A stretch of DNA of 31,278 nucleotides from Gemmatimonadales bacterium (GCA_035709185.1 DASTEX010000321.1:1-31278), one strand, 5' to 3'. Shown: positions 11,357-28,452, counted from the stretch's first letter. The notes: a model not told the origin generated them from the letters alone. Translations and numbers: made by a program.

Positions 11357-11490
11357 AAAGTGCCGAGTGCCTGGGTGCCGGGTGCCGGGTTCGGTACCGG
11401 GTACCGGGTACTTGGTACGGGTACTCCGGTGGCCAAGACCCAGGTACCAGGCACGGCACGGGGTACGGGGAACCCGGCACCGGGCACTCT
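11357..11490. repeat. Element B: inverted heptamer tandem arrays with 19-nt spacer
   Basis: Left 11357-11424: aaagtgc cgagtgc ctgggtgc cgggtgc cgggttc ggtac cgggtac cgggtac ttggtac gggtac. Right 11444-11490: gtaccag gcacg gcacggg gtacggg gaacccg gcaccgg gcactct. Confidence 0.9.
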
Positions 11491-12478: not shown

Positions 12479-12480
<2 letters not shown>

Positions 12481-12568
12481 TTCAGCGATTTAGCGATTTA
12501 GCGATTTAGCGATTACCAACCCTTGACGGTCAACCCAATCGCTGAATCGCCAGATCGTAAAATCGTGA
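12479..12568. repeat. Element E: inverted octamer tandem arrays with 22-nt spacer
   Basis: Left 12479-12514: gattcagc gatttagc gatttagc gatttagc gatt. Right 12537-12568: aatcgctg aatcgcca gatcgtaa aatcgtga (reverse complement type). Fills the whole accD-folC gap. Confidence 0.9.
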
Positions 12569-12569
12569 A

Positions 12570-13805
12570 ATGAACCTGTCCTACACCGAAGCGCTTCAGT
12601 TCCTCTACCCCCGAACCCAGAACTATAAATTCGGCCTGGAGCGCACCGAGCGTCTCCTCGACGAGCTGGGCCGTCCCGACCGGGTTTACCCGGTGATCCA
12701 CGTCGGGGGCACCAACGGCAAGGGCAGCGTGGCGACGCTCATGGCCGAAACCCTGCGCACCGCCGGGTGGCGCACCGGGCTCTACACCTCGCCTCACCTG
12801 GTCTCGTTCCGGGAGCGGTACCTGGTGGACGGGGCGCCGATCAGCGAGGGCGCGGCCGCGATGTGGATTCAGCGGCTCCGGCCGCTCACGGAGGAGATCG
12901 ACGCCACCTTCTTCGAGGTGGGAACCGCGCTGGCCTTCGCCGACTTTGCCGCGCGCGGGGTGGAGATCGCCGTCATCGAAGTCGGCCTGGGGGGCCGGCT
13001 CGACAGCACCAACGTGGTCCGCCCGGTGCTGTCGGTCATCACCAAGATCGAGCTGGATCACCAGAAGTATCTCGGAGACACGCTGGAGCAGATCGCGGCC
13101 GAGAAAGCCGGGATTGCCAAACCGGGCGCGCCGTTGGTAGTGGGGGAAACCCGGCCGGCGCTGATCGAGGTACTGAGGCGGGAAGGGCAGCGGGCCATCG
13201 GGGCGCTCGATCCCGCCGCTACGCTCGACTTCCGGCTGGTTCCGGGCGACGAGTTGTACCAGGGTCCCCTGCGCCTGGTCGGAAGTCACCAGCGGCGCAA
13301 CGCCGCCGTGGCCCGGGCCGCGCTGCACGCGCTGCCGGATCGGTGGAAGCCTCCCGAGCCAGCGATCGAGCGCGCCTTTGCCCGGGCCACCGTCCCGGGC
13401 CGGCTGGATCGCCGGGGCCGCTGGATCTTCGACGTGGCGCACAACCCGGACGGCGTGCGGGCGCTGGTCCGGACGCTGAAGGAGCTGAATCCGCCGGGTC
13501 CGGTCGTGGCGCTGGTATCGATCCTGGGCGACAAGGCGTGGCCGGAAATGCTGGTAACCCTGGATCAGGCCATCGATCACGGCATCCTCACCATCGCGCC
13601 CTCGGCCGACACGCGGCGATGGGACCTGGAATGGCTGCGGCGCTGGCTGCGCGAGCCCGACCGTCCGCCGGCGCGGGCCCGATGGCAGCTGATTCCCGAT
13701 TTCCACCAGGCCCTGCGTGAGGCGCAGGCTGAGGCCGGGACGATTCTCGTGACCGGCAGCTTTCACACGGTGGGCGATGTGATGGGGGCGGTGGGGATAC
13801 TCTAG
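12570..13805 (+). CDS. folC: Bifunctional folylpolyglutamate synthase/dihydrofolate synthase
   Basis: HVGGTNGKGS, YTSPHL, TFFE, EVGLGGRLDSTN, DVAHNPDG, VTGSFHTVG. Confidence 0.95.
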   Translation: MNLSYTEALQFLYPRTQNYKFGLERTERLLDELGRPDRVYPVIHVGGTNGKGSVATLMAETLRTAGWRTGLYTSPHLVSFRERYLVDGAPISEGAAAMWIQRLRPLTEEIDATFFEVGTALAFADFAARGVEIAVIEVGLGGRLDSTNVVRPVLSVITKIELDHQKYLGDTLEQIAAEKAGIAKPGAPLVVGETRPALIEVLRREGQRAIGALDPAATLDFRLVPGDELYQGPLRLVGSHQRRNAAVARAALHALPDRWKPPEPAIERAFARATVPGRLDRRGRWIFDVAHNPDGVRALVRTLKELNPPGPVVALVSILGDKAWPEMLVTLDQAIDHGILTIAPSADTRRWDLEWLRRWLREPDRPPARARWQLIPDFHQALREAQAEAGTILVTGSFHTVGDVMGAVGIL

Positions 13806-13971
13806 TGCCGCGTGCCGGGTGCCGGGTGCCGAGTGCGGTTCAGGGTGCGGGGTGCACGGTGCACACCTCCACCCAGGCAGTCGCGGCACTGAACCGGGCA
13901 CACCTGAACGGCACTCGGTACCGGGCCCGCTGAACGGCACCCGGTACGCGGCACCCGGCACGCTGAGCCCG
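13802..13971. repeat. Element C: inverted heptamer tandem arrays with 23-nt spacer
   Basis: Left 13802-13862: ctagtgc cgcgtgc cgggtgc cgggtgc cgagtgc ggttc agggtgc ggggtgc acggtgc. Right 13886-13971: gcact gaaccgg gcacacct gaacg gcactcg gtaccgg gcccgct gaacg gcacccg gtacgcg gcacccg gcacgct gagcccg. Confidence 0.9.
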
Positions 13972-24252: not shown

Positions 24253-25196
24253 TCCGGACTATCCTCACCGCCGAACGTCACGGCGTCACCTGGATCGACG
24301 TCACCGCCCCCACTCCCGAAGAACTGCACCAGATCGCGCATCGCCACGGCCTCCACCCTACGGTGGTGGAGGACTGCCTGGACCCGGCCCATCTGCCCAA
24401 GTACGAGAAGCAGGAAGAGGCCACCTTCATCATTCTGCGGGTATGGGGCGAGCGCCCGGAACGCACCGGTGAGGCGGTCCAGGACGTCAGCCGGAAGATC
24501 GCGCTGTTCACCCGGGGCGACCTGCTGCTCACGATTCACCGGGCCGACCTCGCCCTCATCCAGCGGGTGGAGAAGGAGTGGACCCTCCGGAAGTACGATG
24601 GCGGCGAGCGCGCCATGGTGCCGGCCATCTTCGCGGACATCGCGACCGAGGCCTTCAGCTCCTACGATCAGCCGCTGGACGATGCGGAAGAGACGCTGAT
24701 GGCCTTCGAACGCGCGTTGTTCGATCCCAAGTCCCGGCCGCCGGCCCTGTTCGCCATTCACCAGCTCAAGGGGAGGCTGGGACTGATCCGGCGGATGCTC
24801 TGGCTCACCTCCGGCGTCATCCTGAAATCGGGTGGAGGCCAGGAGCGCACCACCCCGCTGCACCAGGACCTGCGCGAGACCGCCGACAGCTATCTCTTCT
24901 ACACCGATCAGCTGCTGGACCAGACCCATGACCTGCTCACGATCCACCTGGCCGTCGCGTCCCACCGGACCAACGAAGTGATGCGCGTGCTCACGGTGTT
25001 TTCCGCGTTCTTCCTGCCACTGACGTTCATCGTCGGGCTCTACGGCATGAACTTCGTGCACATGCCGGAGCTGGGCTGGCGGCTGGGCTATCCCATGGTT
25101 CTGGCCGTGATGCTCGCGGTCAGCCTGGCCATCTTCACCTGGTTCCGCCGGCGCGGCTGGCTCCGCCGGGTGGGTGGGGAGGAAGAGACGTTGTGA
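24249..25196 (+). CDS. corA: CorA family Mg2+/Co2+ transporter
   Basis: [24 protein letters not shown] (GMN motif), MPEL; GTG 24249. Confidence 0.92.
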
Positions 25197-26602
25197 CGCT
25201 CGACTGGATCCTGGCCCTGCTGGGTGTGGCCTTCGGAGCGGTGCTCGGCTGGGTCGCGGCCCGGACCGTGGGCCCCAGGCTGCTGTCCTCGGCCCCAGCC
25301 ACCGCGCGTCCCCAGTCCCGTCCCGCAGTGATGAGCGATCCACCGGAGCTGGCCTGGATTGCCCGGGCGAATGCGGCCGCCGGCGTCTGGCTCCGGCGGG
25401 GGGTCCGGAGCAACGTCGTCTCGGTGACCCTGGGGGCCGTACCCGGCAGTCTGCAGCAGGCGATCGCAGCCCGGCTGGCCACCCTGGCTTCGGCCGGAGG
25501 GCGGACCGAGGTGGAACGGCTCGAGGACGGTGTCACGGTGTACGTCGCGTCCGAGGATGTGCAGCTCGCGATGCTGCTGGCACCGAAGCAGCCGTTCGCC
25601 CAGGCCCAGCGGGACCTCGAGGGGCTGCTGGGCGTGCTGCGGACCCGGGAGCTGCTGGAGATCGCCTCCCAGAAGCCGGCCGGGTCCGGCGAGACGATCA
25701 ACAGCGTGGCGATCCGGCTGGCCATGGAAATCGAGCGGTTCCTCGATGCCGAGGCGGCCGTGGTGGTCCGCCAGCCCCGCGGTCCTCAGGTCATCGGCAC
25801 ATCGGTGCGGGCCGATCCCCACCTTCACCGGGTGGTGGCGCTGCCCGGGTCGGCCGTCGACGAGGCGGTGCGGGGTGAGGGGGACGGAATGGTGATGGCC
25901 TATGACCCGTTAGGCGTTCTCCCGCCGGACCGGCGCCACCGGGAGCGGCGAGCCTTCATCCTCCCGCTGGTGAACGCCGGCACCAAGCTGGGCGCCGTGG
26001 TGCTCTGGCCCCCCAGCGGCGTCGAGCCCACCGGGCCGATCAAGGCGGAGCTGGATCGGATGATCCAGCGGGCCGCGCCCCGGCTGGAAGACGCCATCCA
26101 GCGCATGGAGCTGCAGGAACGGGCCATTCGCGATCCGCTCACCGGGCTGCGCAACCGGCGGGGGATGACCGAGGCCATGGGGGCCATCGAAGCCCAGCGG
26201 GGGGCGGTGGTGGTCTTCGACCTCGACCACTTCAAGGCTCTCAACGACAATCTGGGTCACCCCGCGGGCGACTCGGCGCTGCAGACGGTGGCGGGGATCC
26301 TGGAGGAAATCGTGCGGGACGGCGATACGGCCGCCCGGGTGGGCGGCGAGGAATTCGCCGTCTGGATCCGGGACGCAACCATGGAGGACGGTATGGCGGT
26401 GGCCGAACGGATCCGGTCGCGGATCGAGCACGTGAACTGGCAGTGGCAGGGGCGACGCTGGCCCATGACCGCCAGCTTTGGGGTGGCGTCGTGGCCCGAG
26501 ACCACCCGTCACCGGGACAACCTGCTGGCCCAGGCGGACGCGGCCCTCTACCGGGCGAAGGAGAAGGGGAGGAATCGGGTGGAGAGAGCAAGTAAGGACT
26601 AA
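25193..26602 (+). CDS. Membrane-anchored diguanylate cyclase (GGDEF)
   Basis: N-terminal TM helix; [26 protein letters not shown], RxxD I-site (RDGD) and GGEEF. Confidence 0.92.
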
Positions 26603-26629
26603 GGACTAAGGACTTAGGACTTAGCTCTT
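26595..26629 (+). repeat. Element G left arm: (AGGACTW)x4 plus one degenerate unit
   Basis: aggacta aggacta aggactt aggactt agctctt; contains the DGC stop (26600-26602) and the four-helix-gene stop (26623-26621). Confidence 0.92.
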
Positions 26630-27005
26630 CCCCTTGAGGTCTGTTCTCGGATCGACGCTTCGGCGCAGCCCAGCCACAACCCGTGAGGTCTCGCAGCAAA
26701 GCTCAACCAGTTCGCGGTAGGTTCGCTGGTCAACGAGGCCGGCATCGAAGCTGTGGTGCACCAGGCTCCTCACCTCGGCGAGAGAGCCTTTGGCAATGGA
26801 CAGGAACTGGTGGAACTCCCGCCTTCCGCCCCGCTCGAACCCCTCGGCAATATTGGACATCACTGAAAAGCCGGCTGAGTAGCTGGGCCTTCAGTTTGAA
26901 GTGGGGCCGAAACGGCTGGGTTGATGTAACCCTGGCCACGGCGCTCGCGAGCCACCGAGCCTTCTGCCAGGCAATCAGATCTTCGAAGACGCGGACAGGA
27001 GCCAC
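26621..27005 (-). pseudogene. Four-helix-bundle protein (23S rRNA intervening-sequence protein family, PF05635/TIGR02436-like), frameshifted near 26873
   Basis: Frame 1 from GTG 27005: FEDLIAWQKAR...KAQLLS. The +1 frame continues GFSVMSNIAEGFERGGRREFHQFLSIAKGSLAEVRS. These are the family hallmarks F+DL.AWQKA and SNIAEGF. Family assignment is by motif recognition. Confidence 0.88.
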
Positions 27006-27092
27006 CGCTCAAATACTGCGAGAAAGTGCCGAGCCGCGGTAACCGGAAAGCCGCCTCCGGCACCAATTAAGCCCCTGGCTCTCGAGCCACCC

Positions 27093-27113
27093 AAGTCCTA
27101 AGTCCTAAGTCCT
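27093..27113 (-). repeat. Element G right arm: (AAGTCCT)x3, reverse complement of the left arm
   Basis: aagtcct aagtcct aagtcct followed by degenerate tgtcttg. Confidence 0.92.
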
Positions 27114-27142
27114 TGTCTTGGAATGCGGTAGGAGTTTAGATT
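27113..27142 (+). promoter_or_regulatory. Putative sigma70 promoter of ssrA
   Basis: TTGTCT (27113-27118) - 18 nt - TAGATT (27137-27142). Confidence 0.5.
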
Positions 27143-27159
27143 TTACGTCACTTAGGAAG

Positions 27160-27519
27160 GGGGGCGACCGGTTTCGACGGGTCAGAGGAGCTTGTGGTTG
27201 CGCGTCCAGGTCCAGGTTCCTGGTTAAACCGCTTGGAAACACACAACTGCCAACACCAACTTGGCACTGGCTGCGTAAGCTGAGCTTAGCTCGCTGAAGC
27301 ACCACCGGTGAACGAAGCCCGCCTGGGGCGTCGCCGCCGGGTCGAAAATCCGGGCTGGTCCGACGCGATCTTCCGGCGCGAAGGACGAGATCTCAGGAAG
27401 TCGGTGGTGGGAAGTCTGGCCGGTCGACGGCCCACTGCTCAGGCAAGAAGATCGGCCTACGCGCGTAGATACTGCGAGGGATGCTGATTCGGACCAGGGT
27501 TCGATTCCCTGCGCCTCCA
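27160..27519 (+). ncRNA. ssrA: tmRNA, tag peptide (A)ANTNLALAA
   Basis: 5' GGGGGCG pairs with 3' CGCCTCC-A (G3.U wobble); D-loop-like GTTTCGAC; T-arm CAGGGTTCGATTCCCTG; tag ORF 27249-27278 gcc aac acc aac ttg gca ctg gct gcg taa. Confidence 0.97.
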
Positions 27520-28278: not shown

Positions 28279-28452
28279 CCTGCCGATCGTTCCAAGTCCA
28301 CTGTTCCAGGTTCCGGGTTCCGTTCATCGTGCCTCGTTCGTGGTGTCCGACGATAGTGTGCATACGCCTTGTGAAAGGCCGGGGCACGCGGCACCAAGCA
28401 CCCGGAACCGCACGCGGAAACCCGGCACTCGGAACCCGGAACGATCGGCAGG
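28279..28452. repeat. Element D: inverted heptamer tandem arrays with 44-nt spacer and perfect 15-bp terminal inverted repeat
   Basis: Left: atcgttc caagtcc actgttc caggttc cgggttc cgttc atcgtgc ctcgttc. Right: gcacgcg gcaccaa gcacccg gaacc gcacgcg gaaacccg gcactcg gaacccg gaacgat. Termini cctgccgatcgttcc (28279-28293) / ggaacgatcggcagg (28438-28452). Confidence 0.9.

Follow-up and report, generated by a model that had tools for sequence, protein, structure and literature searches.

REPIN-RAYT systems consist of a gene flanked by its own inverted repeat and of many gene-less intergenic hairpin copies of that repeat, with several gene-repeat pairs per genome. A comparable arrangement (a flanked gene, numerous gene-less hairpins and several distinct gene-repeat pairs per genome) is described here around genes of the PF05635 family ("23S rRNA intervening-sequence protein" or four-helix-bundle protein). 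RAYTs are Y1 transposases of the IS200/IS605 type with known chemistry, whereas PF05635 proteins are without known catalytic activity, and the REPIN is a unique palindrome whereas the present hairpins are built of tandem short units. The locus at the center of the analysis lies between a GGDEF diguanylate cyclase (DGC) gene and the transfer-messenger RNA (tmRNA) gene ssrA in a 31,278-nt stretch of DNA, referred to as the window, from a Gemmatimonadales bacterium (GCA_035709185.1, DASTEX010000321.1:1–31278; genome G000 below). It is probably a hairpin cassette of the intervening sequence (IVS) type situated outside rRNA, composed of a PF05635 gene and its own leader inside inverted AGGACTT heptamer arrays, and the gene-bearing member of a family of AGGACT hairpins; RNase III processing and protein-driven spread are conjectural parts of this reading.

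The closest described elements are the open reading frame (ORF)-bearing IVSs of 23S rRNA in Leptospira and Coxiella burnetii (PMC4990558), in which a protein of the same family is encoded in the loop of a long stem formed by terminal inverted repeats. The S23p IVS of C. burnetii has a 28-bp stem with tandem heptamers, the number of which varies among strains, and this stem is cut by RNase III (PMC4990558). The present cassette resembles it in its stem of tandem heptamers and in a decaying ORF; it differs in its position between a protein gene and a tmRNA gene, in arms that are pure tandem arrays, in the dozens of gene-less copies of its unit, and in that its cleavage can only be supposed. Convergent intergenic pairs of tandem 7–8-nt arrays, variable in length among close relatives, are known from Xanthomonas (inverted GGGAATC heptamer pairs; PMC4692102), from Geobacter metallireducens (paired tandem 7- and 8-mers; PMC2700814) and, as cited in PMC4692102, from cyanobacteria. 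These papers tie the repeats to no gene, whereas here each unit family accompanies a PF05635 gene armed by that unit.

Two further relatives are structural. Avd of the diversity-generating retroelements (DGRs) and Xcc0516 (PDB 2gsc) share the four-helix-bundle fold family and are pentamers in the crystal; in the present case neither a reverse transcriptase nor a template repeat, as expected of an Avd system, lies nearby or in the genome. PF05635 genes have also been noted inside cas loci (PMC3936711). Full-text literature searches returned no description of gene-plus-array cassettes outside rRNA or of unit-matched repeat families. This locus and its relatives suggest a connection among three subjects so far treated apart, namely a widespread protein family whose function is not known, the source of the rRNA IVSs that bear an ORF, and the excess of heptamer repeats in bacterial genomes.

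The cassette between the cyclase gene and ssrA

The cassette is delimited by two mutually inverted arrays (Table 1), which pair at 95% over 22 nt and at 88% over 25 nt and are 470–471 nt apart. Shuffled sequence predicts 0.02 copies of the double unit AGGACTWAGGACT in the window; five are present, none of them outside the two arms. Between the arms lie a single PF05635 gene, on the minus strand, its 87-nt leader and nothing else. The TAA stop codon of this gene falls in the last unit of the left arm (seen from the gene, unit one of its 3′ arm), and the left array also supplies the final three codons and the TAA stop of the convergent DGC gene. The GC content is 57–61% in the cassette vs. 69–75% in the DGC gene. 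In minimum free energy (MFE) and centroid folds of both strands the arms are paired, giving the long stem of terminal inverted repeats with an ORF in its loop that characterizes an IVS, at a site between a GGDEF gene and ssrA instead of inside an rRNA helix. A Pfam domain search found no transposase domain at the locus.

Most of this architecture had been anticipated in an earlier, sequence-only reading of the window, which placed a four-helix-bundle gene and its leader, with nothing else, between inverted heptamer arms, the stops of both convergent genes in the left arm and a GC-poorer insert among its neighbors, and which proposed an IVS-like topology for transcripts of either strand; the Tandem Repeats Finder, pairing, Pfam and GC results, the positions of the two stops and the MFE folds all agree with it. 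Three of its statements need narrowing. The arms, described as exact reverse complements, are so for about 17–18 nt and imperfect beyond. The right arm, said to overlap the −35 element of ssrA, does so by only 1–2 nt (arm end at 27113), as follows from the presence of the same promoter layout in relatives without the insert; the promoter itself is putative, assigned by its conservation. Lastly, the family assignment of the gene stands, but its integrity does not, a frameshift near 26882 having been missed.

Table 1. Features of the cassette, its surroundings and other array-bracketed sites. Positions refer to the window unless a contig of genome G000 is named.
Feature	Position	Strand	Basis and remarks
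Left arm (3′ arm relative to the cassette gene), ~4 units AAGGACT/TAGGACT	26593–26622	none	Repeat and pairing analysis; TAAGGAC ×4.1 at 26593–26621 (Tandem Repeats Finder)
PF05635 pseudogene, C-terminal part	26621–26881	−	Pfam match, profile positions 43–104; stop TAA 26621–26623
Approximate frameshift point	26882	−	One-base skip restores full-length reading
PF05635 pseudogene, N-terminal part	26883–27005	−	Pfam match, profile positions 1–36; GTG start at 27005
Leader between 5′ arm and start codon, 87 nt	27006–27092	−	Geometry common to relatives' cassettes (leaders ~65–110 nt)
Right arm (5′ arm relative to the cassette gene), AAGTCCT ×3 on the plus strand	27093–27114	none	Repeat and pairing analysis; AAGTCCT ×3.0 at 27093–27113 (Tandem Repeats Finder)
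GGDEF DGC gene	25193–26602	+	PF00990, E 5.8e-41; stop TAA 26600–26602; orthologues adjoin ssrA in seven relatives
Putative ssrA promoter: TTGTCT (27113–27118), 17-nt spacer, TTAGAT	27113–27141	+	Abuts right arm; same layout in G002 and G006, where the junction lacks the insert
tmRNA gene ssrA, tag peptide ANTNLALAA	27160–27519	+	tmRNA gene call
Gene-less inverted-array hairpins of other units	140–292; 11357–11490; 12479–12568; 13802–13971; 28279–28452		
Array-bracketed ordinary genes: cold-shock protein gene (csp); rpsP and rimM; lgt; Atl/MGMT-like DNA-binding protein gene (PF01035)	C307:834–1501; C25:899–1770; C245:1–1062; C153:3023–3430 (L208)		Elsewhere in G000

The order of cyclase gene and ssrA is kept in relatives, and the junction between them is found filled, short-filled and bare. 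In G007, the closest relative (91% identity to G000 in the tmRNA, 73–77% in the cyclase), the same cassette occupies the same site with an intact gene on the same strand, the tail of which reads into the array; its left units are mixed AGGACT/AGGTCT, its right arm is pure AGTCCT and the promoter follows. The junction of G001 carries a short gene-less hairpin of a distinct, related unit (AAGACCT...AGGTCTT) with a loop of ~12 nt and the opposite polarity. In G002, G006 and G022, the last of another genus, it is bare, with ~65 nt from the cyclase stop to ssrA and the same promoter. These bare junctions identify the cassette as an insertion; they supply the empty site that the earlier reading had proposed to look for, and the only other gene carrier at this junction, G007, is also armed. 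The insert landed after the DGC stop codon and ahead of the −35 element of ssrA, and the simplest reading of the compared junctions is a gain on the branch of G000 and G007. On the branching of these two and G001 the markers conflict: the tmRNA joins G000 with G007, and the C-terminus of the DGC joins G007 with G001.

The two pieces of the cassette gene lie in different frames, and both are assigned by Pfam to PF05635. The mended reading (window:26624–26881~26883–27005:−, X at the break) covers PF05635 positions 1–104 of 106 at 93.5 bits (cut-off 33.8) and is 58% identical, ungapped, to the intact G007 orthologue. The QxRRAxxS motif has lost both of its conserved arginines to substitution, NIAEG is retained, and an intact ORF with the conserved R...S...N..E helix face is lacking in G000. 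The gene of G000 has decayed, through the frameshift and the loss of the conserved arginines. The cassette interior shows zero differences and zero gaps in contigs of three independent soil metagenome runs from different studies, so the frameshift belongs to the organism and is not an artefact of one assembly. The protein matches the Xcc0516 structure 2gsc (E 3.8e-9), a pentamer in the crystal, and from this match in sequence the cassette protein may likewise be pentameric.

Armed PF05635 genes in relatives and other phyla

The arms are a property of PF05635 genes in general. All seven PF05635 genes of G000 adjoin an array (11 of 12 visible flanks), and the unit differs for each gene: AGGACT on contig C321, GCTATCA on C447, GTGCCGG on C374, GGCAGGCG on C38, CAATCGT on C111, TATGCAC on C279 and AGGGCGGAA on C306. 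Thirty related genomes contributed 30 loci, of which about 24 are enclosed by inverted 7–8-nt arrays, with a common geometry in which the 5′ arm is followed by a leader of 65–110 nt, the ORF and a 3′ arm that begins at or inside the stop codon. A wider sample, drawn with the G007 protein as query and one genome per species, comprised 80 loci at 44–56% identity from Acidobacteriota, Nitrospirota, Chloroflexota, Planctomycetota, Cyanobacteria, Proteobacteria, Deinococcota, Ignavibacteriota and others; arrays bracket almost every one of them, in most cases with AGGACTG or a close variant as the unit. In a pooled set of 117 PF05635 loci from the relatives and about ten phyla, with arms taken from Tandem Repeats Finder rows, arrays stand on both sides at 105, and inverted same-unit arms were found at 80 with at most one mismatch and at 11 more with two, vs. 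1 of 138 control windows shifted by 1 kb. The flanking arrays that the sequence-only reading had suggested looking for at other family members are thus present from G000 (7 of 7 genes) to the pooled set, and both checks it had named as possible refutations, this one and the junction comparison, turned out in favor of its interpretation.

These controls bear on the explanation that arrays are so frequent that a small gene will at times fall between two unrelated ones. Short pairs (321) and many lone arrays are indeed present in G000, and some ordinary genes are bracketed there. However, the shifted windows contradict a chance origin; only ~20 long-spaced pairs occur among the several thousand genes of G000, yet four of the five PF05635 genes with both flanks visible are bracketed; and the orthologous cassette of G007 carries the same arms. 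The probability left to chance is negligible.

The more two proteins differ, the more their units differ (Mantel r 0.58; 0 of 2000 permutations as high): proteins more than 80% identical have identical units, and at less than 50% identity the units are close to random. That the unit drifts while both arms change together gives strong comparative support to the stem, or to a process that homogenizes the arms. At the level of sequence, these comparisons establish the gene and its arms as one co-inherited unit that recurs across many phyla with fixed geometry.

The same comparisons speak to a different history, in which the gene alone is mobile and entered the loop of a hairpin already resident, the arms belonging to a repeat family of the host. 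Gene-less hairpins do far outnumber gene-bearing ones, their loops are unrelated to cassette interiors, the short hairpin of G001 sits at the very same junction, and a gene whose arms match a resident family of its genome is equally predicted by this history. Against this history, the unit follows the protein lineage across phyla: it is shared by proteins more than 80% identical, and members of this protein subfamily from at least five phyla have AGGACTG arms. The fixed geometry (a constant leader and a stop codon in the first 3′ unit) and the other unit and opposite polarity of the G001 hairpin also stand against it, and we regard entry into a resident hairpin as unlikely.

One locus of a related genome touches rRNA itself. 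In L023 (G038:C92, ~1830–2075 and 1380–1461) a 23S fragment (Rfam model position 2595 to ~2737, confident up to there) is directly continued by the (GGGGCACG)n arm that belongs to a PF05635 cassette, and a second, gene-less hairpin follows the PF05635 gene. The 3′ remainder of the 23S gene was not found downstream, the contig ending inside the rRNA gene, and the join may represent either a genuine IVS that the assembly collapsed or a chimeric contig.

Gene-less hairpins and their cognate genes

The G000 assembly (3.8 Mb in 731 contigs, 67% GC, 77% complete) contains ~3000 short tandem arrays with periods of 6–11 nt, among them 321 inverted same-unit pairs no more than 150 nt apart (typically 40–60 nt), which sort into ~25 families with units of 7–10 nt. 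The AGGACT family, the second largest, has 33 short pairs, matches on ~80 contigs and ~80 loci with the repeat but without the gene. Arms have a median length of 4.3 units; polarity is constant within every family, and across families the G-rich arm lies on the 5′ side in 24 of 27 families and 287 of 321 elements. With ORFs called crudely, arms lie a median of 2 nt from a stop codon, 67% of them between −25 and +5 nt. A hairpin-free congener, G002, is colinear with the window, and by comparison with it two of the window's gene-less elements (11357–11490 and 13802–13971) are whole extra segments.

Unit families accompany their cognate genes. Hits of AGGACT number 248 in G000 and 60 in G007, with 0 in five other congeners, 17 in G022 and 6 in G023; those of GTCTCAGC number 50 in G001 (elsewhere 0), of GCTATCR 53 in G000 and 81 in G024, of another genus (elsewhere 0–2), of AGGCAAT 17 in G040 (elsewhere 0) and of GGCGGTCA 94 in G010 (elsewhere at most 3), and AGGGTGT is found in five genomes of family f3 (elsewhere 3 in G022). 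For six of the six units tested, the hit-rich genomes are those with a gene seen armed by that unit, a pattern whose independence is overstated by counts over 41 genomes that are related and not independent samples. In other phyla, 62–472 hits were obtained in four of five genomes with an AGGACTG-armed gene; of five genomes in which the gene sampled is armed by another unit, three gave zero. As in REPIN-RAYT systems, the repeat family is found together with its cognate flanked gene (6/6 units; other phyla 4/5 vs. 2/5), which here encodes a PF05635 protein and not a Y1 (IS200/IS605-type) transposase.

Hairpin density follows the same line. In samples of 27–200 kb per genome, short inverted pairs per 100 kb amount to 8.4 in G000, ~7 in G007, ~6 in G001 and 10 in G022, and a total of ~705 kb from the PF05635-free relatives G002, G004, G006, G011, G012, G013, G015 and G028 yielded two. 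The PF05635-positive genomes G014, G031, G024 and G029 gave no short pairs in 66–80 kb samples, so that the gene does not suffice for abundant hairpins; it looks necessary but not sufficient for them. The genus thus offers a natural series, with hairpin-rich genomes that have PF05635 genes, others with neither, and one junction that is filled, short-filled or bare, which makes it a testable question whether the protein binds its own repeat and creates or maintains copies of it.

A proposal that links these observations can be given in steps of decreasing firmness. In a transcript of either strand, the arms would form a stem of ~25–30 bp with the ORF looped out. RNase III would cut this stem and clip the insert from read-through RNA, by analogy with the 23S rRNA IVSs, and such processing would free cyclase read-through RNA of the insert, with ssrA then depending on the promoter of its own. 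With less certainty, a pentamer-forming protein might recognize the tandem units, of which there are ~4–5 per arm, and might then help its own repeat family to spread or to be maintained, in a master-satellite relation like that of RAYT and REPIN. The pentamer match to 2gsc, the ~4–5 units per arm and the co-variation of unit and protein together suggest a protein that recognizes tandem units and has its own hairpin family as its target. In general form, we propose tentatively that PF05635 proteins are sequence-specific partners of unit-matched hairpin families, each with one gene-bearing master and many gene-less copies at gene ends; the ORF-bearing rRNA IVSs would then be the subset that landed in rRNA, and the system would also account, as its satellites, for the puzzling heptamer repeats known from Xanthomonas, Geobacter and cyanobacteria.

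The placement of the arms invites another view, in which nothing is mobile in itself and the protein acts in trans by binding the arrays at gene ends, as in a regulon or a terminator-like system, with the arrays around its own gene serving autoregulation or mRNA stability. Arms at gene 3′ ends at the distances given above, a constant polarity with the G-rich 5′ arm in 24 of 27 families, ~4–5 units per arm and unit families present only alongside the cognate gene would all suit binding sites, and the paired tandem 7-/8-mers of G. metallireducens have been interpreted as sites of a global regulator (PMC2700814). Such sites must still have reached hundreds of unrelated gene junctions, however, some as whole insertions relative to the colinear congener. 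They also differ between congeners, the gene is pseudogenized here, yet the arrays are near-perfect, and the same pair of unit and protein recurs in distant phyla. A system of fixed binding sites therefore seems improbable.

Several observations weigh against a mobile cassette maintained by its protein. No target-site duplication is visible at the cassette ends or in the junction comparison with relatives, as the sequence-only reading had also found; neither movement nor excision was observed, and no enzyme for DNA movement is evident. The relatedness of the genomes compared and the PF05635-positive genomes without short pairs, both noted above, count on the same side. Inverted same-unit arrays, some with 9–10-nt units, also enclose ordinary genes (Table 1) and, in G000, small ORFs without a Pfam match. 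The only known cognate gene of the AGGACT family in G000 is broken, although an intact AGGACT-armed copy may be unassembled, as the genome is 77% complete. In the single RNA run examined, the tmRNA is heavily covered and no contigs extend over the cassette interior, which says nothing either way. Finally, gene-less loops are no closer to the cognate cassette interior than to non-cognate ones, and nothing beyond the arms is common to them. The gene-less hairpins are therefore not simple deletion derivatives of the cassette, and their origin by internal deletion was rejected for want of loop similarity over non-cognate controls. The cassette had been proposed as the "loaded" form of the elements; a common repeat unit remains of that relation, which rests on the unit only because the loops share nothing with the cassette interior. 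The marks of a pair formed by a miniature inverted-repeat transposable element and its autonomous transposon (terminal homology beyond the repeats, target-site duplication, a transposase gene) were likewise not found.

A last mechanism would have the protein act like Avd, with a reverse transcriptase copying the repeat-flanked RNA. PF05635 is the family usually cited for Avd (PMC10053308), and templated synthesis could in principle make repeat arrays. A PF00078 reverse transcriptase was not found in G000, G001, G007 or G022, four hairpin-rich genomes of which G022 is 98% complete, and no template/variable repeat pair exists at the locus. This DGR-type model, which we consider highly improbable, was rejected on the lack of a reverse transcriptase in the hairpin-rich genomes and of the arrangement that defines a DGR.

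Further observations on the junction, the genome and its relatives

A strict scan for sigma-70 consensus promoters gave no call, the conserved ssrA promoter included. In G007, the end of the cyclase gene beside the left arm carries a tandem duplication, AAAGCCTAG-G-TAAAGCCTAG (L002, G007:C450, ~1800–1850). At the same cyclase-ssrA junction of G011 (L008, G011:C26, ~2790–2990), an AT-rich stretch of ~220 nt is present, without arrays and without a PF05635 gene.

Read joints that skip 465–472 nt at the cassette were considered as signs of excision or of an empty allele and rejected, as their sides are no longer than 25 nt, their content is not known and they derive from other AGGACT hairpins. 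The region 26300–27400 of the window recurs almost word for word in soil metagenomes (public runs X1–X14) of at least nine studies, and the organism is by this measure widespread in soils.

A second AGGACT-armed cassette of G000 (C341:10675–11125; L203:273–578) has a different cargo, with 385 nt between its arms and a 102-aa acidic ORF that has no Pfam match and is not PF05635. Many contigs of G000 begin or end inside arrays (e.g., C22, C223, C245, C473, C374, and C220), and the fragmentation into 731 contigs is probably due to arrays breaking the assembly, a practical consequence for short-read assemblies in general. Among the genomes of other phyla, that of the cyanobacterium Coleofasciculus sp. 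H7-2 (G050, the genome of L085) contains 378 AGGACTG double-unit hits in arrays of 20–30 units, which suggests that the heptamer repeats of cyanobacteria are connected with these cassettes.

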